Origin: Candidatus Heimdallarchaeota archaeon
GTDB taxonomy: Archaea; Asgardarchaeota; Heimdallarchaeia; Heimdallarchaeales; Heimdallarchaeaceae
Length of the DNA stretch: 64,000 bases
Assembly: GCA_019057375.1 (NCBI GenBank)
Contig: DXJF01000011.1
Span: forward strand, 32,001 to 96,000
Reading direction: 5' to 3'
Both the position numbers and the translations under genes were made by a program. Positions 36,470 through 63,863 of this stretch are shown here, piece after piece. The notes under the pieces were generated by a model. It saw nothing but the letters and a program-made list of their open reading frames with translations. It was not told the DNA's origin and did not search any database. How positions within the stretch are numbered: the stretch's first letter is position 1; each line of letters begins with the position of its first letter.

Positions 36470-36610
36470 ATCTTGTCATTTAACTTAAATTGATTTGAGA
36501 TAAAAATCTTGCCAATGATAAGCAATAATTCTTACTTTGGCACATTATTCCTTGGGGCGTTTTAATAGTTTCTTTTAACTATTAGAGTAACCTTTCCTAA
36601 GAGTCGATGT

Positions 36611-36685
36611 ATGATGTACAATGAAAAAAATGACCCGGATGAAGGAGACGGAGACATTCTCCCCCCAGCATGGTCTCCAGGTTAA
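36611..36685 (+). CDS. 24-aa conserved micropeptide, copy 1 (MMYNEKNDPDEGDGDILPPAWSPG)
   Basis: Three copies, identical length, synonymous divergence, conserved ~60-bp upstream element. Confidence 0.75.
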   Translation: MMYNEKNDPDEGDGDILPPAWSPG

Positions 36686-36896
36686 TCCTCCTTCCTTTTT
36701 TGTTTTTACTCACTAAACTGCAATTAAACAACTTCTAAATTGTATTCAATCTTTGTAGATTAAATCAATCGAAGTAAGACTTTATGACTAAAATCTTTCA
36801 TTACTCACTTTATCATTCTTTTCTCTTGACATTTTTTCTTTGGGGTGTTTTAATAGTTTTGTTGAACTAGTAGAGTACCCTTTCCAAGAGTGAGAT

Positions 36897-36971
36897 ATGA
36901 TGTACGAACCAAAATATGATCCTGAAGGCGGAGACGAAGGTATTTTACCACCTATGTGGTTCCCAAACTGA
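36897..36971 (+). CDS. 24-aa conserved micropeptide, copy 2 (MMYEPKYDPEGGDEGILPPMWFPN)
   Basis: As copy 1; SD-like GAGTGA before ATG. Confidence 0.75.
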   Translation: MMYEPKYDPEGGDEGILPPMWFPN

Positions 36972-36976
36972 AAAAA

Positions 36977-37074
36977 TTTTAGTTGATGAACCTCTTTCTA
37001 TAGCTAGCTTCAATATTTTTCTTAACAAGAATTTTTATTGTAAACTAAAATTAGCTGACAATAACTCTCCTAGA
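36977..37074. repeat. 98-bp direct repeat, distal copy of the 23S trailer
   Basis: Identical to 47211-47308 except 2 substitutions; contains 24 of 25 nt of the 23S processing-stem 3' arm. Confidence 0.95.
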
Positions 37075-37151
37075 TAAGGTATTTATTTTTGAGATGATTA
37101 ACGGAAAAAGATAAATTTTGTCTTCTGTACTCTCAGTAACCATCTTAGTAT

Positions 37152-37763
37152 TTAATTCACTTGAGAGATTAATTCTTTTCTTTTAAATATTGAAGTATAT
37201 TTATTTTGAATTCGAGAAGTTGGTTTCCAATCTGAATTGTTATTATGTCCCTTAAAACTACGGTATACTATGCGTTTTCTGCCTTTACCATCAATGAAAT
37301 ATCCATTAAACAATACTTTTCCAAATTTCCAGTCAGTTGAATCTTTTGGGATTATAACTGAAACTATTTGAACATTTCCATTATCGGATTTTATCGGAAA
37401 TGCTTTCTCATCCTCATAATCTAGAGGAGGAGAACTCTCATAAGACGGATAGATTGCAATTTGTATCTGTAATTTAACTAAGATACTTATACTCCCAGGA
37501 TTTTTAAAACTAATACGAAGAAAATGTGTAACAATATCTTCAGAATAACGAGATTGTTTAAGCCCACTTTCTACAAGTTTTATCCAAAATATTGCTAATT
37601 TTGGTTCATTGAATCTAGTTTTTCTTCTTGTATAATATAAGCTAATGAATGATGCTACTAATGCACAAATAGATATAATGTCCAAGCTTTCCATTGTTTT
37701 GAGATCCCTATTTAAATTAATAGCATATATGAAATTTACAAATTGATTGAATGAAAGTAACAT
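37152..37763 (-). CDS. Hypothetical protein with N-terminal TM anchor
   Basis: MESLDIISICALVASFISLYYTRRK (likely true start is this internal Met), beta-rich remainder. Confidence 0.55.
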   Translation of the reverse strand: MLLSFNQFVNFIYAINLNRDLKTMESLDIISICALVASFISLYYTRRKTRFNEPKLAIFWIKLVESGLKQSRYSEDIVTHFLRISFKNPGSISILVKLQIQIAIYPSYESSPPLDYEDEKAFPIKSDNGNVQIVSVIIPKDSTDWKFGKVLFNGYFIDGKGRKRIVYRSFKGHNNNSDWKPTSRIQNKYTSIFKRKELISQVN

Positions 37764-37883
37764 GTTTCAGACAAACAATATATTACTCAAACGTATTTAA
37801 AACCCAAAAAAATTCTACTATAACTAGCTTCAAAATTCACTTAACAACTATTTTTAGTTCACAAAAAATAGTTGTATATTAAC

Positions 37884-39455
37884 TCAGTCATCTAGAGTTA
37901 TAAAATCCGTAAGAAGTTTCTGTTGAGTTGAAAATGTTCCATCTTTAAGTCTCTTAATATCATCTATTATTCTTGAAATTGTTTTTCTGTTTTGATTAGT
38001 AATTTTATGTTTTAATTGTTCAACAAGTTCGTCACTTGAAATTAAAACAAATTTCTTTTCAGAGTTATTCTTTGTTTGTGATTCTACGTACAAGCACCAG
38101 AATTTCACATTTTTGGCATATTGAGGATAAATAACTAAGTCTTTATGTGTTAATGCTAAGGGGGATTTTTTGACTTCTATAATTTCTAATGAACCATCAG
38201 GCTCTTCTATAAGTATTTCGGGTAATATCCAATTTCTTTCTTCAACCTCTGGCGTCTCAATCTTTGGTTGCCACTCCCATTTTTTTCCCTTAAATAGTTG
38301 TTGCGCAATTCTGTGACAAATCCTTTCCCATAGATATCCTATTATCTCTACACCACCCACTAGATTACAAGAAGGACACCCCGATTTGTTATGGACTCTA
38401 TTGTTGATTCTTGCTACCCACACATGTTTAGAATTTTTCGAACATTGCCACCACACTTCTCTGTGAGAACCTCCAATTACTTCTTCTGGTGTCAATCCTT
38501 CATTTTTTGTTGGATGCCACTCTTTTGCTATTTCTGGATAAAGAGTTTGTAGTGAATTAAATGGAGATAATCTTCTATGAGAACATATTGGACAACCTGT
38601 TTTATATGGCCCAGTTCTATGATATACTTTAGAATCCCACACATGTTTAGAATTTTTCGAACATTGCCACCACACTTCTTTATCAGATCCTGCTATTATT
38701 TTTTCAGCTGTAAGTTCTCCATTTAGTGTTGGATGTAGTTCTTTAGCTATTTCAGGAAATTTTGTAGCAAGAGAATTCGTAACTGAGACTTTTTTATTTG
38801 CACAACAAGGACATCCATAACCTCTTCTAGTTCTACTATCAATAACTGCTCTCCAAATATGATCTGGTCCTTTATCACAAATCCAATAAACTCTTCTTCC
38901 TGAACCAGGAGATACTTGATTTGGAAGAATCCCTCTATTCTTATCATAAAACCATTGAGCACCTATTTCTGGGAACAATGCTTCTAAAGATTCTTCTTCT
39001 AAAACTAGTTTTCCTGAACAATATGGACATCCTGATTTATTTATACCGCTTCTATCATTTATTTTAGCAGGCCAGTTATGTTTAGGGTTTTTCAAACATT
39101 GCCACCACACTTTTTCACTAGATTTCATAATTGCGTTTTCAGGAGTAAAATCTCCATTTTTTGTTGGATGCCATTCAGCTGCTACTTCTGGAAAGTTGAT
39201 TGCTAATGAATTTGTAACTGAAACTCTTTTACTAGCACAAAATGGGCATCCTGTAATTTTTTTTACTCCGGTTCTGTTGTTTGGACTAGTTGGCCATTCA
39301 TGGTCTGGTCCTTTCTCGCATTTCCACCAAATTGGTTGTTTGGAACCATAGGAAATATTTTCGGGTTTTAAGTTTCCATTTTTTGTTGGATGCCATTGTT
39401 TAACTAGTTCAGGAAAATCAGCAATAGTTTTAGTTTCAATTTTATTCTTTGACAT
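37884..39455 (-). CDS. Five zinc-ribbon (DUF4379-like) repeats + C-terminal PD-(D/E)XK-like nuclease
   Basis: 5x WHPTKN...VWWQC...H.W...R...GCPxC; C-terminal WILPEILI...IIEVKKS. Confidence 0.75.
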   Translation of the reverse strand: MSKNKIETKTIADFPELVKQWHPTKNGNLKPENISYGSKQPIWWKCEKGPDHEWPTSPNNRTGVKKITGCPFCASKRVSVTNSLAINFPEVAAEWHPTKNGDFTPENAIMKSSEKVWWQCLKNPKHNWPAKINDRSGINKSGCPYCSGKLVLEEESLEALFPEIGAQWFYDKNRGILPNQVSPGSGRRVYWICDKGPDHIWRAVIDSRTRRGYGCPCCANKKVSVTNSLATKFPEIAKELHPTLNGELTAEKIIAGSDKEVWWQCSKNSKHVWDSKVYHRTGPYKTGCPICSHRRLSPFNSLQTLYPEIAKEWHPTKNEGLTPEEVIGGSHREVWWQCSKNSKHVWVARINNRVHNKSGCPSCNLVGGVEIIGYLWERICHRIAQQLFKGKKWEWQPKIETPEVEERNWILPEILIEEPDGSLEIIEVKKSPLALTHKDLVIYPQYAKNVKFWCLYVESQTKNNSEKKFVLISSDELVEQLKHKITNQNRKTISRIIDDIKRLKDGTFSTQQKLLTDFITLDD

Positions 39456-39519
39456 CCAACCAGACCTTTCTTCTTCTTATTCCTGTATATCTAGAAGATT
39501 TTGCTTCTTAAAGTTAGTT

Positions 39520-39540
39520 TCTGATCGAACCAATTTCCAT
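39520..39540 (-). repeat. 21-nt copy of the 23S trailer (putative TnpB guide position)
   Basis: ATGGAAATTGGTTCGATCAGA vs ATGGAAATTGGTTCG-TCAGA at 47330-47310. Confidence 0.8.
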
Positions 39541-39597
39541 ACACATACTATGAAGCTCATCCAAGTTTATTATAACTTGAATAGTCTTGACGAGTAG

Positions 39598-41499
39598 TTA
39601 TCTCGTTCCCCTCGTATGTGGAGAGGGGGAATTTGATTTTAACAATTGCTCACCCTTATCTTTTACATTTTTTGCTGCATTTATGTGAGTATTCACCATT
39701 TTACCACACTTTTTACATTTTGCGATGTCATAAGAACCAATTTTTCTTTCGACTTTTCCTCCACAACCATTATGTTTTGTACTTGTTCCTCTTGGATTAA
39801 CATAAACAAGTTTAACCTTATATCCAAGTATTGAAGACGCTAATAATACTGCTTTTTCAAATATTTCTTGATTATCAGGCATATTGTATATTGCTTTAGC
39901 TAAAGCTCCTCTTTTTCCTCTAGGATCTATTTGAAAGTCTTCGACACAAAGTAGATTACTCTTATTTTTTACAATTTCAGCAGCAATGAAATGAGTTGCA
40001 AAATTTTTAATTTCTTCAAGAATGTTTTTCCTTCTTCTGTAGACTCTGTACAATTCTCCCTTAGTCTTAACATACCCTCTAGTGTCTTTCTTCTTTCCCT
40101 TATTCGTTAAACTATAGCTCAACTGAGGGATAATAACATTTGATAGTTTATTGTATTTTCTAGCTAGAAGCAACAAATTCTTTGATAAGGGCTCTTTGTT
40201 AGAAAGCGCAATCATATGTTCACTAACTCGGTTAATATCTACTCCTATGGATTTTACTTTCTTTGTACTCCCTTTCTTTGACAATTGCTTGAGAAGTTTT
40301 GTACTAAGAAACTTACTGGGAGTTCCTTCTATAATAACAGAAACTCTAACCTTATAGCTAGGTGAACTGTTGCTGCGAATGAGCAATGATCTAATTCGAG
40401 CTCCTTTGTTAAGATATTCTAAGATTTTCTTTGAAAAGATAAGCTTACATGTAATTCTAGGGAATCCTCTAAGAACGAATCCCAACTCGAAATACCCATC
40501 TTTTCTTGCAAGTTCCGTCATAACTTTTGAACTACCAGGTCTGAGAACAACATGTTTTGGACACATAATTAGTTGGATAGGTAATCTTCCTTTCTTTTTC
40601 TTTCTAAATGGTGGATGAACAATTTTAGTTGGGTGAGTTTTCTGAATTATTTCTATAACAGTCTTCTCTAATGTAGAGTAGAGTGCGAAGATCACTATTG
40701 CTCTTAAAGCAGAAAATAGTCTTCTATTTTTCTCACCTATTGATTCAGCAATTCTTTTACTTAAAAATTTCAAGCTTTTCCAACGAGAAGGATGTACAGT
40801 ATTATTCCACGAAGTAAGAAGAGGTGCTACAATATCCGCCTTTAAAGCTAACAAACGTAAGTTTTCTAGAAACACATTTGTTTTTGAATTGATTGGTTTT
40901 GATGTTAGTTCTAGGCATTTGGACTTATTACACTTCTGTATCGCTCTTTCGAATTCTTTCTGTGCTAAAAGTGGAAGCATAGTGTTGAATTTTAATCGTT
41001 GATTGCAAAATTTGTCTATTTGCCTTCTTGTACTGGTTAGTACATTGATTACATATAATCTCTTTACCTTCCATCTGTAGATAAGAATACTTTCAATTCT
41101 AGGACTTCTTCCAAAAATATACCATTCAATTGCTTGCTCTTTCCAATTCGACATTAAATCGAAAAATACTTCAACTTTCCTCTCTAAGGTAACTGTGCCT
41201 TTGGCTGCTAAAAATAAGTAAGTATATGCACTATCAGCAATACTAGGACTCTTCTTTGTGATTCTTTTGATGTTAGTTAAACCCACCATATTCGGCATTT
41301 TGGGTTCATTTCTTGCAATTGATAATGCAGCGTTTATTGCCTTTTTATCATGAATTAAATCTTCTTGTCTGACTTGCAAACCTTTTACTCTTTGGTTAGC
41401 TTCTTTTTCTTGTATTCTACGTTTCTCTCTAGTACCCTCAAACCTAACACCCATTTGATAAGTGCGAGTGACTAATGTTTGCTTTGTTTGAGAGGACAT
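39598..41499 (-). CDS. tnpB: Large TnpB-like RuvC protein (633 aa), no TnpA
   Basis: RuvC-I SIGVDIN, RuvC-II CVEDF, Zn finger HNGC...CKKC, RuvC-III NTHINAAKN (His at the Asp position); hairpin-rich 3' end. Confidence 0.85.
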   Translation of the reverse strand: MSSQTKQTLVTRTYQMGVRFEGTREKRRIQEKEANQRVKGLQVRQEDLIHDKKAINAALSIARNEPKMPNMVGLTNIKRITKKSPSIADSAYTYLFLAAKGTVTLERKVEVFFDLMSNWKEQAIEWYIFGRSPRIESILIYRWKVKRLYVINVLTSTRRQIDKFCNQRLKFNTMLPLLAQKEFERAIQKCNKSKCLELTSKPINSKTNVFLENLRLLALKADIVAPLLTSWNNTVHPSRWKSLKFLSKRIAESIGEKNRRLFSALRAIVIFALYSTLEKTVIEIIQKTHPTKIVHPPFRKKKKGRLPIQLIMCPKHVVLRPGSSKVMTELARKDGYFELGFVLRGFPRITCKLIFSKKILEYLNKGARIRSLLIRSNSSPSYKVRVSVIIEGTPSKFLSTKLLKQLSKKGSTKKVKSIGVDINRVSEHMIALSNKEPLSKNLLLLARKYNKLSNVIIPQLSYSLTNKGKKKDTRGYVKTKGELYRVYRRRKNILEEIKNFATHFIAAEIVKNKSNLLCVEDFQIDPRGKRGALAKAIYNMPDNQEIFEKAVLLASSILGYKVKLVYVNPRGTSTKHNGCGGKVERKIGSYDIAKCKKCGKMVNTHINAAKNVKDKGEQLLKSNSPSPHTRGTR

Positions 41500-41633
41500 A
41501 GTGTAACTGTTAATATTATATGTACTTTCATTTATAAACTGAGAAAAAAAGATGATTCTTCTTGAATTATTATTGTATTACTTCTGTACCATTTATTTTT
41601 GTTTTTTTACTCTTAATAAACAGTACATATGTT

Positions 41634-44093
41634 CTATGATAATTTTAACCAGAATTCAAAATCATCTAAAACTTTGATGTGTTTGTCTCCTACGATTACA
41701 TCTGCAAGAATTTCCAAAGGAATTTCCTCGTTATGTCCTTGGCTTTTAGCTTGAATTATATTCAGAGTGAAATCCCAATCATATGACCTTTTATTATCTA
41801 ATAACAGTTTCTTGATCTCCTTTAAACCTTTTATTCTAATCTCATCGTCATTTTCATGAGCATAAAGATAGAAGTAGTACTCTAATTCAATCGATTCTTT
41901 AAATCTTGATTTTTCTATGTACTTCATAGCTTTATCTAGGTATTCAAACCCTTCTTCCCTTCCTTGAGAAAGAAGTAAAGATGCATAATTAATCAAGTTA
42001 TTTGCATTTTCAGAATCTATCTCATTTGCTTTGTTAAAATACTTCTCAGACATTTCAAGATTCTTGAAATCATGATACATTAGCACTGCAAGTTGTCCCC
42101 AAATCTCTGCATTCTTAGGTTCAATTTTTATTGCTTTCTTCAAATGGGATTCAGCCTTTTTATAATCATTATAAATCTTAGACACGAAATATGAATAATT
42201 ATAATGACCAAATGCATTGTTTGAATCTAACTCAAGTGCCTTCTTATACATCTTTTCTGATTCTGAATAGCGTTTCACTCTTTTCTGCAGGAATATAGCA
42301 TAATAAACATAGTACGTAGAATTTTCTGGAGATTTCTCAATTGCCTCTTTTAGGTATCTCTCCGCTTTTTTATAATCTCCTAATTTCTCTGAATAAAAAT
42401 ATCCTATATCTAGAATATATTCAGCATTTTCAGGATTCAAAACTAGTGCTTGATTATAATATGAATTAGCTTTTTTGATATCCTCTCTTGAATAAGCTAG
42501 AAACCTTGCATAATTTAAAACTCCACGTGAATAATTAGGATTTGTATCAATTGTTTTTTCAAAATACTCCTCCGCTAGATTATAGTTTTTCCGAATTTTT
42601 TCTTGAAATAAAGCATAACCTTCTAAAATTGTTGGCATATTAGGAGATATTTCTAAGGCTCGTTTGTAATACTCTTCAGCCTTTTTATAGTTTTCATCAT
42701 CCTTGACAATTTCCCATAAAAAGCCTGCGTAATTACTTAGGTTTGCAGAACTGTGTGGGTTCAATTCCAATGCTAATTTGTAGAATTCTTCTGCTAATGT
42801 GTGATTCCCCACTATTCTATGCAGGAAACTTGCATAATTTACTACTAAAGCTGGAAATTTTGGGGCAACAGATAGTGCTCTTTTGTATATTTTCTTTGCC
42901 TTTTCGATGTTTAATGTAGACTGTAGGAAGAAAGCATAATTAGTTAAAAGATTGATATTATTTCCAAAGATTTTCAGACCACTTTCATAAATGTCAATGG
43001 CTTTATCAGGATTCTTCCATTTCCATTCGGCAGCCTTCAACTCAACGTATTTCCAAGCTAGTAATTCTTCGCTTAGTTCAGATAAAGCAAACGAAAAAGC
43101 TACTGAAAATTTCTTTTGTTCCTTCGGATTTTTTTGTTCAATATCTTTTGGTATCTCTCCTAATCGTTCATAAAATTGATTAATAAGTCCTTCAATTCTT
43201 TCTTTGTCTGGAAGTTTCAAAGAAAATTCCTTTAGAATCAATAGCATTAGTTCATCAAAATCTCTATGCTGTATCCATACACCATCCCTATCTTTAATCC
43301 AATTACCTAGTTTGGTGTTTGGAAACTCATTTCCTATCCAATAAACTCCCCATGGAAGAGCGCTTTCGGGGAGTTTTGAAAGAATTTCGGCTATGCTCCC
43401 GTCATTTCCACCATATCCCATGAATATAAGTCCTGTATCAGAAAGAACCTTTTGAATAGCTACTTTAGTGTTTTTTGCAAGAGTCTTAGTTTCAATTTCT
43501 GTATTTTTTGGCTCAAGTCTAGCATCACCATGAAGTTTAATGACTAAAGGTTTCACCCTCGAAGATCTTACAAAACCTGCTAAAGTGTCATGCACAATTA
43601 CAAGTGGTTTTTTATTTGTGTATAGATATAATGCATCTGCAATTAAATCATCAAAATTGACAGTCAAAGCTACATTACAATGCTTTCCATATTTTTCATC
43701 TGACATTAAACAAGAAAGGACACCATAACCAAATCCTGGATCTTTTTTATCAATTATGTTCTCAATTTCCTTTTGCCTTTCTTCAGGTTTATGAAATAAT
43801 AATTGAATTATTTTACCATAAAATAAAGCTGCTTGAGAGTCATCATAATTTGGGAGAATCTCTTTGATATTTTGAAGAGAATAATCTGCATCTTTTCCTT
43901 TTCTCTGCCTAATTAATCGAAAGAGCCATCTTTTTGCGAGTTCTCCTGCTGTTGGAATACCTGAAGAAACAGAACACCCCGCTCCAAGAAAGAACACATA
44001 TTTGCATTCTTCATAATTATCCATATTGTATTTGATTTTTCTTATGAATTCTTCAATATCCATCTTTTTTATTTCTATATTTGCTCCTTCCAT
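41634..44093 (-). CDS. SIR2-like domain + TPR array, putative antiviral NADase
   Basis: FFLGAGCSVSSGIP, TVNFDDL, IKLHGD, FMGYGG; many TPRs of type AEEYYKRALEISP. Confidence 0.85.
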   Translation of the reverse strand: MEGANIEIKKMDIEEFIRKIKYNMDNYEECKYVFFLGAGCSVSSGIPTAGELAKRWLFRLIRQRKGKDADYSLQNIKEILPNYDDSQAALFYGKIIQLLFHKPEERQKEIENIIDKKDPGFGYGVLSCLMSDEKYGKHCNVALTVNFDDLIADALYLYTNKKPLVIVHDTLAGFVRSSRVKPLVIKLHGDARLEPKNTEIETKTLAKNTKVAIQKVLSDTGLIFMGYGGNDGSIAEILSKLPESALPWGVYWIGNEFPNTKLGNWIKDRDGVWIQHRDFDELMLLILKEFSLKLPDKERIEGLINQFYERLGEIPKDIEQKNPKEQKKFSVAFSFALSELSEELLAWKYVELKAAEWKWKNPDKAIDIYESGLKIFGNNINLLTNYAFFLQSTLNIEKAKKIYKRALSVAPKFPALVVNYASFLHRIVGNHTLAEEFYKLALELNPHSSANLSNYAGFLWEIVKDDENYKKAEEYYKRALEISPNMPTILEGYALFQEKIRKNYNLAEEYFEKTIDTNPNYSRGVLNYARFLAYSREDIKKANSYYNQALVLNPENAEYILDIGYFYSEKLGDYKKAERYLKEAIEKSPENSTYYVYYAIFLQKRVKRYSESEKMYKKALELDSNNAFGHYNYSYFVSKIYNDYKKAESHLKKAIKIEPKNAEIWGQLAVLMYHDFKNLEMSEKYFNKANEIDSENANNLINYASLLLSQGREEGFEYLDKAMKYIEKSRFKESIELEYYFYLYAHENDDEIRIKGLKEIKKLLLDNKRSYDWDFTLNIIQAKSQGHNEEIPLEILADVIVGDKHIKVLDDFEFWLKLS

Positions 44094-44140
44094 TAATAAC
44101 AGATATTAATTTTCAGCTATATAAATCTGTGATAATACTA

Positions 44141-46858
44141 TTAGAGATGTTTTATTGAATCTTCATTTATTTCTCTTTTACATTTGGGACAAATAGTTTT
44201 AACTTTCATCCATTCTTGAAGATGATTGTTATGAAACGTATGACCACAATCTATTATGTAGACTAAATTTTCTTCTGCTACCATGTAATTCAAACATATT
44301 TCACACTTTCTTGTTTTCTTTCCACAGTTTAAACAAATAAGTGGTCCTCCATCCTTTACTCTTTCAAGCAAAGCATCGCAGAAGTAACAGAATAACTTTT
44401 CATCTTGCTTCTTAATATTGCCAACAGTGCTTTTCTCTTCAGTGATTTTTACCTCTTTCTTAGGATTTTCTTGTAGTCTACTCTGTTTAATTTTTCTGAG
44501 TACTACTCCTTGATTTGTGAAAAACTCTGCAAGTGAAGGTTTGCTCTGTTCCTTTTTCTGCTTTCCAAATCTCATATATCCTATAAACAATATGAAAAAT
44601 AATCCAGAAACAATAACTGACCACGGAAATAGCTTTCCAGAATTATTCTTCTTCAGATAGCTGAATAACAACCATCCAGATATAAAGAAAACATATTTTG
44701 CATATCTGAAAAGGAACTTGTTTTTACTATGAAGATCTTTGTAGAAGGTATTTGTAGAAGAGTTGACTACTACTGAAAACCAAAAGAAAGTAGAAGCAAA
44801 TAGTATGGTTGTAAAAACATTGAACGAGATTTTACCCAAGATAACAAATTCAAACCCAGTATTATCACTGTTAGCTATTGAAACTAATCTCCCAAGAATC
44901 AGAAAGAATCCCACGTTCTTCAGGATTACAAAAACAGCTGCTAATCCCAGTAATACTTTTCTCATGTTACCTAAAATACTGAAATTGAAGAAACGCTCTG
45001 TTTTAATATATCCTCCATTGAATTGAAGTTCGTATTCTTCATCATCAAGTTTTACTTTAGCATTCCTGTTTGTTTCTTTGTTTTTCTTTTCTAAATGTCT
45101 TACTAAAACAATTAATGCTATTGCATCTAGAATGAGACTAATGCTCATTAGAGTTGGTAATGAAGGTTTGAAAGGTTTTGAGTCACTGCTTGGGTTAGGA
45201 AGTTCAAAGGGGTTCGTCGGTGTGACAACTTCTTCAGAAGTAGCTGCGAGTCTGTAGCTAAGCTCCCCTATTGTAACCGATAAACCTTCACCATAGATTG
45301 ATAATATTATTTCTATTTCTTGATAACCTTGGTTAATTTCTATGATTACTCTATCATTGATCGTTTGTTTATCATTGAATGATTGAAAGAAAACCTGATT
45401 ATCGTTTATCTTAATTCGCAGATTGAATTGATCAACAGAAGAGTAAAATTCGTTGTATAAATTCAAGGAGAAAGAAAGATTGAAGGTAGTTGAAGAAGAA
45501 TCAAAATAGAAAACATCTGTGAATTTAACTGTTAAAGGTCCTGTAATTGATGTTTCATAAGTTTTTGAGGAGACCATCGTTTTTTCTAGAGTGCTATTTT
45601 CATCAAGTATAGGAACGGGCTCTATTTCAATAGTACTGGTATTGAGTAGGTAAAAAATACCCTCTCCTGTTGCTATTCCATAAACCCGAAAAGCAATATT
45701 AGAGGAGTAATTTACAGTGTAGGTATCAATAATACTTTCAGGATAGCTGAAATGAATAGCCCCTGAATAGATGACATCGGAATCCGAAAGAATTTCATAA
45801 TTTAAAATAGGTAAGATTGCTGAACCTATATAATCATAATATAACGAAATGAACAAATTCTGTTCACTAATGCTAGAAAAAGGTTTTAGTGATGATAAAT
45901 CAAAGGAATGGTCTACTGAAGGGCCATCGCAGGAAAACCAATCAAAAGATTCTTCTGGAATTTCGTCTTCGAGAAGTTGGAGTTCTCCAAACAAAGCTAT
46001 ATTAGTAAACCATATCTCATCTACACCTAGGTTAACACAGAAATAGAAACGGATTATGTTCGTCCCCTGCTCTAACGGAATAGAAAAAGAGACAATAACA
46101 AAAGGAACTTTAGAAAAACTTGTAGTAGCGATGATTGTGTTATTTATTTCTACTTCTAAATATCGAGAAAGGGCACTAAAGGAATTTGTATTAAAAGAAA
46201 GAGTTACGTTTAAAGTGGTGGAACCATTGATTGAATAAACTGCTGTTTCAACATAATCACTTCTGACACCTGAAAGATCTCCATAATAGCCTATTTGACC
46301 AGGATTACAAGGAAGGGAGGTTAAATTCTTATCAAGAACAGGAATTGTAATTGGTTCTATTGTTGATGAACTTAATATTTGAATAGCGCCAGAATTAAGG
46401 ATATTCGAAGTTTTACCTTCACATGAAATAACAATAATCATTGAACCGATGAAGTTTTGAGGATAAGAAAATGATTTAGAAATAGAGTGTTCATTAGAAT
46501 CCTGATAAATACGGTTAATGTTAATTTCTACTTCAGTAGTGTCCAAATACAAAATAATCGTTAATCCATTTGAGTCAGTCCTATCACCAGAAAAGAGAAA
46601 AAATATAGTTAAACTATTATATTCTTGAAGTTCAAGATTGACTAGTTCAAAAGTAAAATTTTGTTTTACAGAAGTTGAGTCATAAGAATACAGTATATTT
46701 TCATCTATTATAGTAGAGCTATAAATAGAAGGGGGATTAGGAACGTTATTTTGATTTCTTGCAATAGCTAAAGAACTAGTAAAACAAAAGAGTGTTAACA
46801 CTAATAACATGTTTCTAGTTGTGTTTTTCATTATCAGTTTTATAATCCGAAAATTCAT
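44141..46858 (-). CDS. Signal-peptide/ectodomain multi-TM protein with C-terminal Zn ribbon and RING-H2-like finger
   Basis: ~520-aa beta-rich ectodomain, ~5 TM helices, CEIC...CGHTFHNNH..W....CPKC; likely true start ATG 46831. Confidence 0.8.
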   Translation of the reverse strand: MNFRIIKLIMKNTTRNMLLVLTLFCFTSSLAIARNQNNVPNPPSIYSSTIIDENILYSYDSTSVKQNFTFELVNLELQEYNSLTIFFLFSGDRTDSNGLTIILYLDTTEVEININRIYQDSNEHSISKSFSYPQNFIGSMIIVISCEGKTSNILNSGAIQILSSSTIEPITIPVLDKNLTSLPCNPGQIGYYGDLSGVRSDYVETAVYSINGSTTLNVTLSFNTNSFSALSRYLEVEINNTIIATTSFSKVPFVIVSFSIPLEQGTNIIRFYFCVNLGVDEIWFTNIALFGELQLLEDEIPEESFDWFSCDGPSVDHSFDLSSLKPFSSISEQNLFISLYYDYIGSAILPILNYEILSDSDVIYSGAIHFSYPESIIDTYTVNYSSNIAFRVYGIATGEGIFYLLNTSTIEIEPVPILDENSTLEKTMVSSKTYETSITGPLTVKFTDVFYFDSSSTTFNLSFSLNLYNEFYSSVDQFNLRIKINDNQVFFQSFNDKQTINDRVIIEINQGYQEIEIILSIYGEGLSVTIGELSYRLAATSEEVVTPTNPFELPNPSSDSKPFKPSLPTLMSISLILDAIALIVLVRHLEKKNKETNRNAKVKLDDEEYELQFNGGYIKTERFFNFSILGNMRKVLLGLAAVFVILKNVGFFLILGRLVSIANSDNTGFEFVILGKISFNVFTTILFASTFFWFSVVVNSSTNTFYKDLHSKNKFLFRYAKYVFFISGWLLFSYLKKNNSGKLFPWSVIVSGLFFILFIGYMRFGKQKKEQSKPSLAEFFTNQGVVLRKIKQSRLQENPKKEVKITEEKSTVGNIKKQDEKLFCYFCDALLERVKDGGPLICLNCGKKTRKCEICLNYMVAEENLVYIIDCGHTFHNNHLQEWMKVKTICPKCKREINEDSIKHL

Positions 46859-47210
46859 TTATAAACTGAGTAAAACCATATTTACTATATCTGAATCTTG
46901 TTGGGTTTAAATAGATATTTTGCATTTCATTATTGAGATAGATGTTCGTAATTACATTCCTTAAGTCTTTAAGATCAAAGAAAAAAGGGGGACCTATTCT
47001 AGAAGAGATTCTACTTATTGGTATAGCAGTTCTTGTCTTTGCAATAATCTTTGCACTAATTTTTAGCTTAATAGATTGGTCTACATCTCCTTTTGAAGAA
47101 CTTTTCAAGTGAAGAGTTTTTTCTTTCAATTTCAAGAAACTTAGACTTTTAGTGGGTTTATAAGGGGAATTACTATATTTTCTTTGAAGCTAGCAATACG
47201 CAAGATAACA

Positions 47211-47308
47211 TTTTAGTCGATGAACCTCTTTCTATAGCTAGCTTCAATATTTTTCTTAACAAGAATTTTTATTGTAAACCAAAATTAGCTGACAATAACT
47301 CTCCTAGA
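47211..47308. repeat. 98-bp direct repeat, proximal copy (native 23S trailer)
   Basis: Matches 36977-37074. Confidence 0.95.
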
Positions 47309-50934: not shown

Positions 50935-50959
50935 TTCTAGGAGAGTTATTGTCAGCTAA
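50935..50959. other. 5' arm of pre-23S processing stem
   Basis: Inverted complement of 47285-47309. Confidence 0.85.
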
Positions 50960-52855: not shown

Positions 52856-53035
52856 GTTCATCTCAGGAAAGGTTATCATTTTAGTTAGACAAAGCTATTA
52901 AAGCACCCCAAAGAAAAGACTGACAGTTACAGCTATTTCTGATTGGAAGAGTTGGCTAATAGATAATTGGCTTGATGAGTTTGAAAGATTAAAACCTTAT
53001 TTTCTTAATTCAGAGCAATTATGACAACTAAAAAA

Positions 53036-53093
53036 CTCCAAGGAATACAAGAACCCCGAGAGAAAGATTCTACAGAAGTAGAGAAATAAGGGG
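53036..53093 (-). repeat. R1: degenerate copy of the 16S trailer stem arm
   Basis: AATACAAGAACCCCGAGA identical in R1, R2 and R3, followed by CTACAGAA.TAGAGAA. Confidence 0.85.
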
Positions 53094-53185
53094 TGAAAGA
53101 ACGAGTTTTATTAAATAGAAATTGTAAAAGTTGTTTCAAATGTTGTGCTTAGAAACAATTTTGAAGATTATATAAAATATCAAGG

Positions 53186-56100: not shown

Positions 56101-56323
56101 AAGGACCTCTTTTTCCTGAATAGAAAAGTTGTTTTGGAGTCCAGCTACTGCTGCTTTGGATACTTTTAGCTTCCCCAATGCAGATTTTTCTTCCGTTAGT
56201 ATAAAAAGAACTGTCTTCATAGTTTTTTTCTATAGAAAATTCATCATATTTGTTTGATAGAATATGGTATAGTGCAGTTAAAATTTGGTAATTAAATTTA
56301 TGTCCAAGATGCTCATCTATCAT
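53186..56323 (-). CDS. Nuclease + STAND-type P-loop NTPase + helical repeats (Avs-like defence protein)
   Basis: N-terminal ED...IGEAKS PD-(D/E)XK-like motif, Walker A GDSASGKS, Walker B IILDDIHE, C-terminal helical repeats; visibly AT-richer than core genes. Confidence 0.7.
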   Translation of the reverse strand: MIDEHLGHKFNYQILTALYHILSNKYDEFSIEKNYEDSSFYTNGRKICIGEAKSIQSSSSWTPKQLFYSGKRGPLLQLLVRSKGVETFVFYSNIPIKDEFFSDSKIIIPKEELSDICKIIPENYSEMFGSKITVDILSDFIKKVEFKCIQLDSLEDHIIEIAEQYGYQTNKSNIRYFLGHINSKNYCKGTTIKKHIIHDYLREKGSSSYIYLEIEKNSIEHVLRKDQVFESKQKIPVWSNFEEGKIVERRVLKECIQELEKQKRTIVLGDSASGKSVFLKHVGFILAKKRPVYYLSFKEENREKIEELCKILLYDRKEPLIILDDIHENLNSFNNICKLHNASSKSLVLAGTRLIEFKIRGNSEFERNPILKITAEEIAEEIVKKHIPNDSNLRNHNNFSKLQIQLSKYWQDLWLLEFALNSIDHEKCEVHEEEIYQYILESLDEVFNHKELDQFYDCVFILSVFSKHNIRVEKNYLIQNLKIHNHILEYLLEKHEIIEHLLYYPVEIVHISNVWNLYEKHNIHHIGSAYFQITYILSHQSVAQLYYSAIKFSNCISYNLRLLLGERYEDDFNLFKEYILHSNEDYKIKILKFLMNDNTKGIVDYLLSDGEIMKYLLESMKYEEDLYFITMLYERFIISKYQKEYLNILIKKFKNVIDCKMFVQSIESLFWQMSNKNIRIFLRKIKIRKILKRINWILPDSSFSFLSTIINQNYNLAKIASGIIGKSIILSKTIEHEDFIHLINFMNKLFYYNLGKNKQFNIKKTRIFDYFTKRIDSETNLSQIEIILDFLGETDSINLVLNKKNIKNLVEKVNCSEDLIGVKCLLSSASLFSEDLISRILVLLDKDVLYEKIKTEKDLHDIGVTLYSLRYIAKNDLLLDINSILDSDFIKNKLEDKWNIVDLFHFIKGLCVFNKDLTVFLIDKINSESIILNYDYSFDTVVYPFLEIAGLEEDIAIKLIPNLVQLIRNKEDVLWLTYAATHVESNYNPKILLDIFHHINPSLILEIMEDTYAGDIFMSNLIDGIGKRISYMISHEIIKYVENIN

Positions 56324-56679
56324 ACAAATATCATCTTTTTTGTTTATTTCAATAAAGTTTGAAATTAAATATCGAATTCAACTTAATCTATATGTTATTT
56401 TTTACAAAGCTACTTAAATGCTTTTTTTTCTATTGGTAAAGATGAAAAATTAATATTTATAGATAAATGGAAACCTTTTGAAGATTTTGAGAGAAATATG
56501 AATAAGTTGTTAGAAACTCTAGAAGTATTAATTTAAGATATCATATTGAGAGAAATATAAGTAAAACCTGAATAAGTTAATTATATAGATATATGGATGA
56601 ATGCTAATTTGTTGGAAGAATTTACTTCAATTAAACATTATTTTTACTAAAATAAATTTCAAACTATGAAGAATAAATA

Positions 56680-56789
56680 CCCCCAAATAATACAAGAACC
56701 CCGAGAATAAGATTCTACAGAAGTAGAGAATAAAGGGTTGGGGTTGGGAAGTCTTGAAAACTTCCGAACGTAGGAGGTGATCCATCAGC
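56680..56789 (-). repeat. R2: degenerate copy of the 16S 3' end (anti-SD) plus trailer
   Basis: 56762-56789 matches 62343-62370 at 26/28 incl. GGATCACCTCCT; trailer arm at 56680-56737. Confidence 0.9.
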
Positions 56790-56832: not shown

Positions 56833-57144
56833 TTAAATATCAATGTAACAGTTCCTGATAAGAAAATGCTTGGTAGTTGAGGTAATATGGATTCCAAAGG
56901 AAGTGCTAGACGTAATATTGTAGTTCTCAATCAAGTAAGGATCTTCATATGTACCTGAACCTGGAAAAGCTAAGAAATCTTCATCTGAAGTAATCTCTAT
57001 AGGGTCATGGTTTGTAAGATAATTAGTGTTATTAGATTGGTTAGCTTTAGTTTCTCCGTCAACAGTAATTGTTACAGAAACTAAAAAACAAAGTAGGATA
57101 AGTGTTCTTCTACATCTAGGGGACATAGTATTCTCTAGATTCAC
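56833..57144 (-). pseudogene. Truncated secreted protein (N-terminus of NosD/beta-helix-type surface protein)
   Basis: Signal peptide then HDPIEITSDEDF..FPGSGT.EDPYLIENYNI...FLIRNC; ends abruptly next to R2. Confidence 0.65.
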
Positions 57145-57237: not shown

Positions 57238-60200
57238 ATGAGAAACAGAATTTGGCTTTGTAAAATCCTCTTATTGGCTAGCATACTTTGTGGAGGCTTT
57301 CTTCTAATTAACAGTGAGGTTGAAGCTGAACCAGGATTAAGAGATGTGACAACCAATGCTTTATTACCTTATGATATTAATTTTGAATTTAACTTCTCTG
57401 GCAGTGAAGAAGTTTATAATTTGCATTCAAATCAAATTGAATTAGGAGAACTAAATAAACTCACACTTTCTTTCCGAGTAAACGGTATGAGCGGTTCTCC
57501 AGGATTAAAAATAGTGTTCATTTTCATGACTATTAAAGTTGGATTTGTTGTTGACCGAATTTTTAATGATGATACTTTACACAATTTAACTGAGACTTTT
57601 CTTTTTCCTCACAACTATTCAGGTAGTATGGATATTACTGTCATTTGTAGTGGTAGTTCAACTTCTACAAGAAATGGATTTCTTACCATATTTAATAGCA
57701 CTAAAATAGAACAAATGAATATTCCCACAATATCAGAGGATTCTTTTTCTCTTCCAACTTCCCAGGATTGGGTGATGTTCAAAGGTAATATATATTCTTG
57801 GAATAGAGGAGGAATTACATCTGCTTTTTACAATTACGATGAAATGGCACTAGTAAGTCTTAACATATCCTTCTCTTCAAATTATTTTCAGTCAATAGAA
57901 AATGTAGTTGAAATTTCTTTAAATGGTAATTTTGTTGCAGAAGATTATTTCATTGAAGATTTAAGTAATAATATTGATATTCAATTTCAACCTGAAATAG
58001 GTTTGAATCTCTTATCATTGAATTTCTCTGTTTCTTATTCCTTTAATCCAATTTATATTTCAAATATCTCTCTTTTTGGCTCTCTTTTTAATTATGAATC
58101 TAGCAGTTCTACTTCAGATTCATTTAGTTGGGAAAGTGGTTTTTTTTCCTACTCTTTTGATTTATCTACGTTAAAACCCCCTGGGTACTATTCAGAACAA
58201 GTTCTTCACTTAACAATCAATTACCAATGTTTCGGAATGAAAATCTCTTCAGGAATAAACTATTTTCTAAAAATAGGGACATCTATTCTCGAGGAAGGAA
58301 CCATAAGCTATCTCGAGCAAATGTATGAGAATAATAGTTTAAAGATCGAGACCTTTACTACGGAATATCACAACCCTCTTACGTTTAAAATTTTCGGCAC
58401 TTCGAATGGGGTGGGAGGACTTACTATTTTAAATTCAAGTACGATTGAAATATCTCACATAGGTGAGCTAACAAAACAACCTTTGAGTAGAACCATAGCA
58501 GATGAAAGAAGTGTTAATGGTCCTTCTCTTGCTGTTTCGCTTAGTTTTTATGATGTCTTTCAAACTTATAGGATTGCAGCTCCTGTACAATTAGCTGTTA
58601 ATTTTAATACAGTTTCTACTTATGAACATCCCTTTGATTTACTTACAGTAACAGTCAAAATTGATGGTGTAAGAGTAATATCAAAAAATGTTCATATTCT
58701 CGGTTTTGCAAATTTTAGTAAAGAATTTTCCTTAGAACATGGGTATCACGAAGTTAGAATAAATTTCCAATTTTCTGGCATTAATACTCCTCTCACAGTA
58801 GAACAATTGAAGTACCAACTAGCTTTACAAATTGAAGAAGAAATTACTGTCTCAACAGCACTCTCTTATGCTCGTCAATCAACATTCTATCTTCTAGCCT
58901 TTTACGCCCTCCTCTATGTCCTTCTAGATGTTAAAGAAATAAATCGAGAGAGAATCAAGGAAAAAGAAAGTTCTATTCGTGAAGATTCTATCGAAGATGC
59001 AAATGATGACTCTAGGAATTTATTACGTACGGCTCTCATGGTTGTTGTAAATATATCTATTAATTTGACTCCTTCTGTTTTCTTCTTGTTGCATGGAATT
59101 AATTACTGGTTTATTTTACCCTTAAGCTTCTTTGTAGCTTTACATTTCAGTATCAAAATTCTCTTTTCGAATTTTTCGAAAGATGCAATAGTTGGGTTTT
59201 GGAACAAAACAAGAGACTTCTTTAGAGATATCTATTCCCTCTCAGGCTTTCTTAATAAAGTTACAAGATCATTCGGAAAACTCTCTTTTAGAAGCTTAAC
59301 TAGATTATTGGTCTTCGCTATAGCTTTTCTGAGCTTTGGCTTATTGTTTTTCTTGGCAGATAATATTCCTTCAAATGCTGTCAAGGAAGTCTGGATTGTC
59401 TATGCTCTTTTGCTAGTTTGTATTGTTATATCCTCTCTTACTTTATTCTACACCCTTCATTTAGTTAGAGACATGGCTTTTATAGAGGACAATCTGAAAA
59501 GAATAAAGAGGTTAGGTTATGCTTCCATCACACTTGTTGCTGGTTTTCTATTTGTTCTTATCAGCATGTTAGGCACTAAACTCAGTCTTTCAAGCATCTG
59601 GGGTTTCCTTTCTCCAATCCTCCTTTTTGGTATTTTTCGTACAACAACTAAACTAGGAAAGATTTCTGCCAAAGAAGAAAAGCTCTCCTTTGACGATTTT
59701 CTGGATAAAGGAATGTTCTTCACTGATAAGAAGGAGATGCGAAAAGCTGTCAGTTTTGGTATCAATACTCGCTCTACTTGGGAAAAGAAAGGGTATGAAC
59801 TCCAGAAACATCAGATAAAAGGTGTTATCGCTTACGATTACAACCCTGGAGATAAGATCAATCTCTATGAACTGGCTGAGAAGATTAAACTCCCCTTTAA
59901 GAAAACAGAGGAACTTGTTCAGGAGATAGAAAAAGAAGTTCCTAGATTAGGAAAATATGACCCTCAATCTAAAATCTATACCAAGAGCAAAGAGAATATT
60001 ATAGAAGCTCAGGAAATTCAGGAAAAAATTGTTCCAGATAAATATGAAAATGAAGAAAAGAATGTAGAGATGAGTAAAATACCAACAAAGAATATTTCTA
60101 CAAAAGAAAGATTTCAGAAGCTGCTTGAAGAGGTAGTAGGAGAGAGTGACGAGGAGAAGAGGAGAACTCTAGAATATGTGAATCATTTGACAGCTAAAGA

Positions 60201-62181
60201 AGCGGAAGTATATCAAAAATTCTTGAAAAAGGGATTGGGAGACCAAGATATAGTCATAACTAATTCTGACAGAGAATTTTTACAAAGAGCATGGAAGAAG
60301 ATACATGTTCAAGAAGATATTTTTCAAAGAAACAGTTCTAGCAATTTGCTGAGGGAATATTATGATAAGATATCAGATGCTCACAACGGTTTTGATGATG
60401 TTGTGTTTGAGATAAAAAAAGAATTATTCAAAATATCCTTTTTGGAGTATAAAGTAGGTGATCGTGCAACTTACTATCCTTGGGAGTATATTCCTAAATT
60501 TGGATATCATTTGCTACGTAGAGAATTAAATGAAAAACAACTTCTTAAGTACATAGAAAAAAACCCAATAGTTGAATCTCTTTTTTCATCTCAATCAAAT
60601 TTGGGGAAAAAGAAAGTTCCTTTAATCATTAGAAAGCTATACTACGACAGAAACAGGCAGTATCATATCATTGGAAATGATTGGTTAGTCAAATTCATGA
60701 ATGGAGACTTTCAGAATGCTCTTTCTCATTTAGTCACTAAAGGTCTACTAACAAACAAACAGAAAAAGAGAATTACTGTGGGATTATCGGAATTTAACCA
60801 ATTGGTAGGTTTAGCTCAGAATGGACACACTTTTCGAGTTTTCGATAATACGAAAAAAATACAATTAGAATCTTGTGCAGAAATAACATTAGGTGGAAAA
60901 CAAATTATCTTATACCACGATTTCTTTTTACCTAAGTTTGAGATTAATCAAGAAAAAATCAGCATAAGTCTTCAAGGTTTTAATAAGATAACAACTTCTA
61001 AACACAATCAATTGAACCTGCTAATTAAGAAAGAATACTTCCTCAGAGACGATCAAGAGGACAAGATTCTTGTTCTCTATGCTAAACTTAAAAGAGAATT
61101 TCTTTTAGATTTGATAAAATCTAAATTAATGGACCATTTACAGGTTTTATATGATAAAAGATATATTTCTGGACTTGATACAATTACATCATCAGATTTT
61201 ATTCCGTCTATTGATAAATTAAAAAAGCAACCCACAAGACAGAGGGGTATAGTTTGGTTTTATGATGATATTCAAGTTTCACCTATTGATTTTCTTACTA
61301 ACAAAAAATTCAAAGAAATTCTACAGGAAAAAGATGAAGAATTGCTATTTTCTAAATTAGCTTCATTACTAAGTGACACTGAAACTTTTTTTGAAGACGA
61401 AGGTAGAAAGCAATTTTCTATAGCTTATGAAGCCTATAAGAATGGACATTTCGATTTCTTTCTTTTTAATCAAAGTGTTAATGAGATCTATAAACCTCCT
61501 ACTTACTCTTTTAGGCAAGGTAATATTCCTAAAACTGGTGTTATATTAGTTGACCACAACAATAGAATAATCAACTTAATTTCCCCCTCAAAAGCTGTTA
61601 GTATTCTACTAGAAGAGGGTGATATATTGCTTAACTTTCCTTTTAGATGGGATTCACACTATGGTTATTTTGCATTCACCCAAAAAGGAAATAGAATGAG
61701 TAATGTTGCCAAGTCTTGGTATGATTGGTTGATTAAGGCAAATCTTCCCATTCCTTCAGGTTCCAGTGGTAGAATTCCTGATATATCAGTAATTGCAATG
61801 TTACTAGAGTGGTGGACAAGGCAAGAAAATTTTGTTATCAATAGGATTCTTTCAAACCAAGTTTTTATTGAGAGTTGTAGGAAACACAAAATTGTGGTTG
61901 ATAAAGATTCTACAATGGTTATTGATTCAAAAAAGAATTCTTACAAACTTGCACGAGTTTCTGTTACTCAAACAGGAAATATTAGACATAAAGAAAATTG
62001 GAAATATTACGCGTTTTATAATGACAAAATACGCACAGTTATTGATGTTCTTAAAGCTGCAATTTTTGATTTAGTTTTACAGAAAGGCAATATTTCTTCC
62101 GCTCAAATACCTGATTTGAGAAATTGGTTGAAGATAAATTGGTTGGAAGAATTTGAAAAACTGAAAGAATATTTCTTTTGA
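57238..62181 (+). CDS. 1647-aa receptor-like membrane protein: ectodomain paralogous to 44141-46858, multi-TM, PCI/winged-helix-like region, large unknown C-terminal domain
   Basis: Ectodomain aligns by eye (DRIFNDDTLHNLTETFLFPHNYSGSMDITVICSG vs NRIYQDSNEHSISKSFSYPQNFIGSMIIVISCEG). Confidence 0.8.
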   Translation: MRNRIWLCKILLLASILCGGFLLINSEVEAEPGLRDVTTNALLPYDINFEFNFSGSEEVYNLHSNQIELGELNKLTLSFRVNGMSGSPGLKIVFIFMTIKVGFVVDRIFNDDTLHNLTETFLFPHNYSGSMDITVICSGSSTSTRNGFLTIFNSTKIEQMNIPTISEDSFSLPTSQDWVMFKGNIYSWNRGGITSAFYNYDEMALVSLNISFSSNYFQSIENVVEISLNGNFVAEDYFIEDLSNNIDIQFQPEIGLNLLSLNFSVSYSFNPIYISNISLFGSLFNYESSSSTSDSFSWESGFFSYSFDLSTLKPPGYYSEQVLHLTINYQCFGMKISSGINYFLKIGTSILEEGTISYLEQMYENNSLKIETFTTEYHNPLTFKIFGTSNGVGGLTILNSSTIEISHIGELTKQPLSRTIADERSVNGPSLAVSLSFYDVFQTYRIAAPVQLAVNFNTVSTYEHPFDLLTVTVKIDGVRVISKNVHILGFANFSKEFSLEHGYHEVRINFQFSGINTPLTVEQLKYQLALQIEEEITVSTALSYARQSTFYLLAFYALLYVLLDVKEINRERIKEKESSIREDSIEDANDDSRNLLRTALMVVVNISINLTPSVFFLLHGINYWFILPLSFFVALHFSIKILFSNFSKDAIVGFWNKTRDFFRDIYSLSGFLNKVTRSFGKLSFRSLTRLLVFAIAFLSFGLLFFLADNIPSNAVKEVWIVYALLLVCIVISSLTLFYTLHLVRDMAFIEDNLKRIKRLGYASITLVAGFLFVLISMLGTKLSLSSIWGFLSPILLFGIFRTTTKLGKISAKEEKLSFDDFLDKGMFFTDKKEMRKAVSFGINTRSTWEKKGYELQKHQIKGVIAYDYNPGDKINLYELAEKIKLPFKKTEELVQEIEKEVPRLGKYDPQSKIYTKSKENIIEAQEIQEKIVPDKYENEEKNVEMSKIPTKNISTKERFQKLLEEVVGESDEEKRRTLEYVNHLTAKEAEVYQKFLKKGLGDQDIVITNSDREFLQRAWKKIHVQEDIFQRNSSSNLLREYYDKISDAHNGFDDVVFEIKKELFKISFLEYKVGDRATYYPWEYIPKFGYHLLRRELNEKQLLKYIEKNPIVESLFSSQSNLGKKKVPLIIRKLYYDRNRQYHIIGNDWLVKFMNGDFQNALSHLVTKGLLTNKQKKRITVGLSEFNQLVGLAQNGHTFRVFDNTKKIQLESCAEITLGGKQIILYHDFFLPKFEINQEKISISLQGFNKITTSKHNQLNLLIKKEYFLRDDQEDKILVLYAKLKREFLLDLIKSKLMDHLQVLYDKRYISGLDTITSSDFIPSIDKLKKQPTRQRGIVWFYDDIQVSPIDFLTNKKFKEILQEKDEELLFSKLASLLSDTETFFEDEGRKQFSIAYEAYKNGHFDFFLFNQSVNEIYKPPTYSFRQGNIPKTGVILVDHNNRIINLISPSKAVSILLEEGDILLNFPFRWDSHYGYFAFTQKGNRMSNVAKSWYDWLIKANLPIPSGSSGRIPDISVIAMLLEWWTRQENFVINRILSNQVFIESCRKHKIVVDKDSTMVIDSKKNSYKLARVSVTQTGNIRHKENWKYYAFYNDKIRTVIDVLKAAIFDLVLQKGNISSAQIPDLRNWLKINWLEEFEKLKEYFF

Positions 62182-62207
62182 TATTCAATTTGGGTGAAAT
62201 AAAAAAG

Positions 62208-62266
62208 CCCCCAAAGAATACAAGAACCCCGAGAGAATGACACTACAGAAATAGAGAATATAAGGG
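62208..62266 (-). repeat. R3: native 16S trailer incl. 3' arm of the leader-trailer stem
   Basis: 62239-62258 pairs with leader 63973-63994 (7 bp, 2-nt bulge, 13 bp). Confidence 0.85.
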
Positions 62267-62351
62267 GACTTCTTTCGAAGCCAGAGTTGGTCATAACAAG
62301 GCCTAAAAACAGGCCCTGCATGATCAAGGAATCCTTGAAGGATTCCAAACG

Positions 62352-63863
<1,512 letters not shown>

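Follow-up and report, generated by a model that had tools for sequence, protein, structure and literature searches.

Behind the 3' ends of both ribosomal RNA (rRNA) genes in a 64,000-nucleotide (nt) stretch of a Candidatus Heimdallarchaeota archaeon genome (G000, the genome under study; contig C12, positions 32001-96000), we confirm the presence of cassette arrays delimited by copies of the pre-rRNA trailer. We call this whole stretch the window and give positions within it throughout; the G000 assembly is a metagenome-assembled genome (MAG) of 3.47 Mb in 159 contigs and is 89% complete. We hold with moderate confidence that the 16S and 23S 3' ends act as gene-capture sites, at which segments of one to several genes are inserted serially between the rRNA gene and its trailer. 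Our findings demonstrate that insertion at the rRNA ends is serial and is accompanied by duplication of the trailer. With each event, a working trailer is left beside the rRNA gene and an older copy is displaced downstream; the displaced copy consists of the rRNA end or the first trailer bases, a hairpin, and the 3' processing-stem arm. Species vary in their alleles at these sites, and the same units turn up in different genomes and positions, as seen in a comparison, mostly within one genus, with relatives' genomes (G-numbers) and with stretches that include metagenome contigs (L-numbers).

The 23S rRNA gene (47333-50910 (-); Rfam RF02540, 2463 bits), which anchors array 2, and the 16S rRNA gene (62353-63863 (-); RF01959, 1294 bits), which anchors array 1, lie in the same orientation 11.4 kb apart. 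A first-pass annotation of the window had proposed that the 16S trailer, with the arm that pairs with the leader, occurs three times behind the gene, and this is borne out by our analysis. The trailer core is present at 62190-62268 (R3), 56662-56740 (R2), and 53017-53095 (R1), and the three copies are 71-82% identical, matching each other within the genome at BLAST E values of 1e-12 to 1e-17. A 60-nt core of all three is complementary to the 16S leader, whose 5' stem arm (63965-64000 (-)) continues about 27 nt past the window end, and the core-leader duplex energies (R3 -75.3, R2 -63.4, and R1 -68.6 kcal/mol) are well beyond those of shuffled sequences (-25 +/- 4). The predicted 16S stem pairs about 60 nt of leader and trailer, with a central bulged helix. 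R3 (62190-62352 (-)) is the working trailer and contains a hairpin at 62328-62352, two more hairpins, and the 3' stem arm at 62190-62268. R2 (56594-56789 (-)) is a displaced trailer that includes the 16S-like GCTGATGGATCACCTCCT, corresponding to the last 18 nt of 16S, along with the stem arm and a hairpin whose stem varies by compensatory changes. R1 (52953-53095 (-)), the oldest copy, has the stem arm and lacks the hairpin. In addition, R1 and R2 each retain C-terminal codon relics from a gene resembling the one for the 1647-amino-acid (aa) protein adjoining 16S (family fam1).

On the 23S side, duplication of the trailer had likewise been claimed, and we find that 47204-47308 (segment b) and 36970-37074 (b') are 96% identical across 105 nt (E 6e-44). 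Within this repeat lies the 3' arm of the 23S processing stem: the leader at 50935-50959 (-) forms a perfect 25-bp pairing with 47285-47309. In the predicted fold, segment a (47310-47330) prolongs this stem past a 3-nt bulge, so the working trailer (47254-47332 (-)) consists of segment a, the bulge, and the 3' stem arm. Segment a matches 39520-39540 (a') at 21 of 22 positions, and 12- to 15-mers of the stretch are almost never found elsewhere in the window. Together, a' and b' reconstitute the whole trailer within 1 nt, separated at the bulge by an insert, X1 (37075-39519 (-)), which encodes a DUF4379 protein (37884-39455) and a 203-aa protein (37152-37763) and contains a third, decayed trailer copy, b'', at 37818-37885 (76% identity). 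The repeat extends less far as a trailer than had been stated: the stem arm is part of it, but the distal 50 nt of b belong to an inserted module, X2, because homology to that module ends exactly at 47253/4; b' (36970-37074 (-)) is the displaced stem arm plus a 50-nt relic of an X2 end, and its orthologue is the one copy that G013 possesses. The 23S trailer itself is conserved genus-wide down to about 47262-47281. Both rRNAs are thus predicted from sequence to have a long leader-trailer helix with a bulge-helix-bulge-like interruption, and BLAST found no further copies of either trailer repeat in the 3.47-Mb assembly. The repeats are real and locus-specific, and their arms keep pairing, which supports capture.

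The rRNA flanks of the relatives contain both empty sites and alternative cargo, as had been anticipated. At the 23S site, G020 has the pyrophosphatase gene, 60 nt, and the trailer; G013 and G023 have a gene for a 24-aa peptide only; G001, G009, and G016 have one or more peptide genes and a gene for a 525-aa protein (fam0) between the pyrophosphatase gene and 23S; and G000 has 10.1 kb more than its relatives. G013 is uninterrupted across the G000 insertion, with the order peptide gene, b, a, 23S. At three diagnostic sites, b' has the bases of G013 and the 23S-proximal b has those of G024; although these sites are few, the split of b and b' by species would fit an incoming unit that brings its own trailer.

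The 16S arm repeat is found genus-wide, and we observed arrays of 2 to at least 5 units behind 16S in ten genomes (G001, G003, G004, G009, G010, G013, G015, G016, G022, and G023) and on 14 metagenome contigs. Across genomes and metagenome contigs, the 16S site ranges from no units to at least five; on metagenome contig L090, 16S, the trailer, a deaminase gene, and 23S fit within 1.65 kb with zero cassettes. A typical unit comprises 11-20 nt of the 16S end, the trailer hairpin, the stem arm, a fam1-family C-terminus relic, an upstream element with a 24-aa peptide gene, and fam0, and other units carry beta-lactamase-like proteins, alpha/beta hydrolases, molybdopterin oxidoreductases, S8 and S9 peptidases, HEPN, Schlafen/AlbA_2, S-Me-THD, and STAND proteins. 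Internal copies start about 11-20 nt from the 16S end (about 52 nt for one copy), or 4 nt past the 23S end for 23S units, and half-arm units exist among the 16S arrays of relatives. In G009 and G010, half-arm boundaries lying exactly at the bulge were considered and were not upheld on inspection. Where the two rRNA genes are divergent, as in G005 and G002, it is still the 16S end that the arrays follow. The 16S fragment inside the G022 array matches the G001/G016 type of 16S, not that of G022 itself.

Altogether, insertion occurs at or within the 3' end of an RNA gene, direct repeats of the gene end flank the units, and empty or alternative alleles exist (G020, G013, G023, and L090 versus G000), as in stable-RNA islands. 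The DNA between the trailer copies is accessory, as the first-pass annotation had supposed, with cargo at both rRNA 3' ends differing among relatives. Its broader proposal, that cargo accretes with a replacement trailer, is supported insofar as internal copies keep the rRNA end, hairpin, and stem arm and the b and b' variants differ by species. Such capture would explain the 11-kb gap between 16S and 23S in this genome and, more generally, the way in which rRNA genes of the genus become unlinked.

Module X2 (39541-47253 (-)) contains, by Pfam and PADLOC, a 106-aa open reading frame (ORF), a 905-aa fam1 protein with a RING finger, a SIR2-TPR protein, and a TnpB-like protein followed by a 3' RNA-scaffold end (39542-39597). 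X2 is found again in G010, G011, and G018 beside tRNA-Cys(GCA), and the order in G011 is full tRNA-Cys, 73-nt spacer, X2, 15-nt spacer, 35-nt tRNA 3' fragment with a diverged T arm, and native flank; the tRNA-Cys of G000 is an empty site for the module. These comparisons place X2 at tRNA ends in some species and behind 23S in G000, each time accompanied by a copy that restores the tail of the RNA gene. The 106-aa ORF (46815-47135) overlaps the start of the 905-aa gene (44141-46858) by 44 nt, and since the pair recurs in G011 and G018, it may represent either one frameshifted gene or a conserved overlap.

The TnpB-like gene of X2 (39598-41499), which encodes 633 aa, belongs to a family of about 630 aa with 40-47% mutual identity and a shared 3' RNA-scaffold motif. 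It scores above the cut-off for Cas12f1-like_TNB (32.6 bits) and below the cut-off for the NCBIfam model guided_TnpB (E 4.5e-8). Nine further paralogues are encoded on C117, C47, C21, C92, C144, C145 (two), C102, and C65. The 10 G000 paralogues and 2 orthologues end in one conserved motif and then diverge, so X2 has the RNA-scaffold right end followed by a variable flank that characterizes IS200/IS605-type elements. In the window, this motif ends at 39542 and a' (39520-39540 (-)) directly adjoins it, which places the first 21 nt of the displaced 23S trailer in the guide position. All family members have His instead of the expected Asp at the third RuvC residue, and these proteins may have a rearranged active site or be nuclease-dead guide-RNA proteins. 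ARAGORN found no tRNA genes beside the TnpB paralogues of G000; by eye, the C47 copy has a tRNA-like end about 100 nt off.

The most frequent cargo and neighbour in the genus is a module that pairs 24-aa peptide genes with fam0, of which many paralogues exist per genome. The peptides share the consensus MMYxxKYDPxxGDxxILPPxWxP, and each gene is preceded by a conserved element with a TATA-like box and a hairpin. Fam0 is predicted to fold as an all-helical TPR solenoid (predicted local distance difference test score, pLDDT, 88), with structural matches to generic TPR proteins that include the peptide sensors NprR and Rap. On the strength of this model, the peptide and fam0 look like a candidate peptide-receptor signalling pair and not a recombinase; fam0 was also considered as a mobilising enzyme and rejected, given its confident TPR solenoid and its generic TPR matches. 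G000 retains one full module, with three peptide genes and fam0 (C12:126881-129136, L028:6881-9136).

Three 24-aa peptide genes lie in the window. Two of them (36611-36685 and 36897-36971) each follow an upstream element at the far end of the 23S array (36545-36971 (+)), and the third (52781-52855) follows another such element at the far end of the 16S array (52781-52917 (-)), a position that holds a peptide gene and fam0 in G001. It had been stated that both arrays end at the same micropeptide gene; the genes are indeed there, but they are not terminators and, by comparison with the relatives, are orphan remains of peptide and TPR modules. The fam0 tree contains within-genome clusters (three copies in G004; three in G001, including the copy behind its 23S) as well as cross-genome pairs, and arm type and fam0 lineage travel together, as in G001 unit 2, which matches G023 unit 3. 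The arrays thus grow both by local duplication and by exchange.

In rRNA-strand order, the 16S side consists of 16S, R3, the convergent 1647-aa protein, a 103-aa beta-helix fragment, R2, a STAND NTPase, and R1, with a 24-aa peptide gene, a cupin, a cytidine deaminase, and the 23S leader beyond R1. The 1647-aa surface/membrane protein (57238-62181 (+)), whose last codons are the source of the R1 and R2 relics, also adjoins 16S in G013, G022, G023, and metagenome contigs. It shares a 550-aa N-terminal domain with the protein nearest 23S (26% identity, E 3e-46), in agreement with the earlier assignment of both rRNA-proximal genes to one ectodomain family. The beta-helix fragment (56833-57144 (-)) is the N terminus of a surface protein of family fam4, truncated 43 nt ahead of R2; intact homologues in relatives are 385-394 aa long with Beta_helix/NosD domains. 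The 1045-aa STAND NTPase (53186-56323 (-); Pfam nSTAND_NTPase5) lies in a region, 53001-56000, with a G+C content of 25-28% compared to 31-35% in its surroundings, which points to a foreign origin for this cassette.

On the 23S side, the order is 23S, segments a and b, the 106-aa ORF, the 905-aa RING protein, SIR2-TPR, the TnpB-like gene, and a', followed by the DUF4379 zinc-finger protein, b'', the 203-aa protein, b', two 24-aa peptide genes, pyrophosphatase, and PEPCK. X1 was considered as a conserved mobile unit and rejected, since its DUF4379 homologues in G001 and G009 match in the ORF only and have different flanks. The rRNA genes themselves also contain insertions. The 23S gene is 3578 nt long compared to the 2987-nt model, indicating large insertions or expansion segments. 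Short insertions in the 16S 3' region, which may be mini-introns, comprise about 31 nt inside helix 45 in G000 (about 62380-62410) and a 32-nt hairpin 13 nt upstream of the 16S end in G001 (L021, about 10085-10120), G010, and G016. A metagenome relative (L086:4577-5311) has an insertion of about 800 nt within its 16S gene that encodes a LAGLIDADG-type protein.

We propose that incoming circular or linear DNA with its own trailer copy would recombine with the chromosomal trailer. Such a Campbell-type crossover would automatically give two hybrid trailer copies flanking the cargo, so an integrase would be unnecessary. The most likely catalyst, which we put forward tentatively, is host homologous recombination acting on 100-250 nt of trailer homology, and this homology would be kept across species by rRNA processing. 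Crossover between array copies would free circles of one trailer plus cargo that could re-enter any trailer of the genus, and release of these circles would explain the shuffling, expansion, and loss of units. The appearance of a replacement trailer would arise because an insertion persists only if a stem arm stays close to the rRNA. For X2, cutting of unoccupied trailers by TnpB could help the module spread, given that the guide position of its RNA holds the trailer's first 21 nt. A stronger version, in which an otherwise unrecognised system targets pre-rRNA trailers and TnpB-like proteins cut unoccupied ones to drive the copying of trailer-bearing cassettes into them, strikes us as improbable; if true, it would amount to RNA-guided gene capture at rRNA ends without an integrase.

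Our searches for a dedicated enzyme are in line with an integrase-free process. The absence of an integrase, noted in the first-pass annotation, holds for the window and its cargo, where no IntI-type gene was found either, and no recombinase domain was present in the cargo proteins scanned from the window, seven relatives' genomes, and metagenome contigs. In the 89%-complete G000, we found no tyrosine recombinase (PF00589), not even of the Xer type, no Y1 transposase (PF01797), and no reverse transcriptase. Four serine-recombinase ORFs are present on other contigs of G000, unlinked to the arrays or to TnpB. The idea of a dedicated route finds no support here, since no recombinase is found in or near the cassettes and the 16S-fragment boundary is fuzzy (11-20 nt, with one at about 52 nt). 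No trailer arm or fam1 module was found on viral contigs.

Several observations weigh against capture through trailer homology. Homologous recombination leaves the first duplication unexplained, and the internal 16S fragments start in a narrow range and are directly abutted by unrelated cargo, a pattern closer to what a defined crossover site would leave. In G011, the repeat at tRNA-Cys spans just about 35 nt and has a diverged T arm, which is insufficient for homologous recombination. The His at the third RuvC position makes nuclease activity of the TnpB family uncertain, and G030, from another genus of the same order, shows the stem yet lacks any trailer repeat up to 17 kb from its 16S. Lastly, the genomes are incomplete MAGs, and a recombinase may be encoded elsewhere. 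The narrow boundaries, directly abutting cargo, and short tRNA-Cys repeat fit a site-specific enzyme acting in trans. Such an enzyme, encoded in trans or on unsampled complete elements, would recognize a short core at the rRNA 3' end, with the rRNA end and trailer as the att site, and the cassettes would be integrase-less satellites or decayed elements, working as for tRNA-targeting integrases. We regard this as a possible but doubtful explanation. It would account for the narrow left boundaries, which fall about 11-20 nt inside the 16S end and 4 nt beyond that of 23S, and X2 at tRNA-Cys has the classical layout of full tRNA, element, and partial tRNA with a diverged T arm; tycheposon islands, moreover, have integrase-less remnants between partial tRNAs (10.1101/2020.12.28.424599). 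The four serine-recombinase ORFs of G000 could supply an enzyme, but they are unlinked and on other contigs, the scanned cargo and the genome lack the domains named above, the boundaries are not identical, and half-arm units exist.

A purely local origin seems quite unlikely to us. Here, one ancestral tandem duplication, from the rRNA end to the edge of the neighbouring gene, would be followed by unequal crossing-over and in-place gene replacement without cassette import. Most units in relatives do hold fam0, some of whose paralogues cluster by genome (the triplets of G004 and G001), and the same kind of fam1 C-terminal relic is common to all copies. However, other fam0 copies are nearest to copies from other genomes, unrelated cargo occupies the same position in different species, b and b' group with different species, G022 has a foreign-type 16S fragment, and X2 moves between tRNA-Cys and 23S. 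The position of X1, which interrupts the displaced 23S trailer no more than 1 nt away from the 3-nt bulge beside the 25-bp helix without target duplication, would be expected if foreign RNA were ligated to a trailer cleaved at the bulge-helix-bulge site of the pre-rRNA stem and then copied into DNA. This is a single coincidence with a chance of about 1 in 40-60, the 16S half-arm boundaries of G009 and G010 are not exactly at the bulge, and G000 has no detectable reverse transcriptase, so we consider an RNA-linked route highly improbable. We give hardly any credence to an assembly artefact around collapsed rRNA copies. While rRNA regions are difficult to assemble and this MAG has 159 contigs, the copies are 71-96% identical and not identical, each has unique flanks, and the same architecture recurs across more than 15 genomes that were assembled independently, as well as on 14 metagenome contigs, where it is seen in 18 stretches.

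If rRNA ends are indeed gene-capture sites, the landing-pad idea for stable-RNA gene ends would extend from tRNA and tmRNA to rRNA genes, and the need to duplicate the pre-rRNA processing arm with each event would have a simple explanation. The arrays would also mark a site at which Asgard archaea gain and lose defence-type and signalling genes and provide a tractable case of integrase-free gene capture, via trailer homology or an RNA-guided nuclease.

Our literature search found no direct description of integration into rRNA gene ends and no paper on arrays delimited by duplicated pre-rRNA arms. The earlier statement that nothing of the kind was known for Asgard archaea stands for such arrays but overlooks HeimM2, which adjoins the only 16S gene in Ca. 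Heimdallarchaeum (Wu et al. 2022, PMC8813620). Like our arrays, HeimM2 is an Asgard mobile element directly at a single 16S rRNA gene; it differs in being one 8-kb element with a homing-endonuclease-like gene, and the portion of that report on which we draw mentions no arrays or duplicated processing arms. SAR11 HVR2 is similar in that a flexible region is bounded by rRNA genes and its cargo varies among close relatives (PMC2217521, PMC3448164). IS200/IS605 TnpB (OMEGA) systems resemble X2, which ends in a TnpB-like gene and a conserved RNA-scaffold end with the 21-nt flank in the guide position and has no target duplication at its a' junction. On the other hand, X2 lacks a Y1 transposase, spans 7.7 kb with cargo, has His as its third RuvC residue, and has the stem arm of its target copied at the opposite end.

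Integron arrays also have co-oriented short repeats that part one-gene cassettes beside a fixed anchor, with the newest presumably nearest the anchor. The arrays described here, however, have no IntI and no attC-type imperfect palindrome; the repeats are the anchor's own tail, the only hairpin is the 19-nt trailer hairpin, and the cassettes are of mixed orientation with their own upstream elements. The closest parallel in principle is tandem accretion at tRNA genes, where incoming elements push older ones inward and partial tRNAs remain (10.1101/2020.12.28.424599). The tycheposon islands of Prochlorococcus (10.1101/2020.12.28.424599) and archaeal tRNA-targeting elements share with the arrays insertion at a stable-RNA 3' end, a restored gene end, older units pushed inward, scattered partial gene copies, and variable cargo that includes defence genes. 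They differ in that our anchor is an rRNA gene, the restored part is a pre-rRNA trailer of 100-250 nt and not a tRNA 3' half, and neither the units nor this genome yielded an integrase. Altogether, these comparisons suggest that the arrays are a form of tandem accretion at stable-RNA genes, with an rRNA gene as the anchor.

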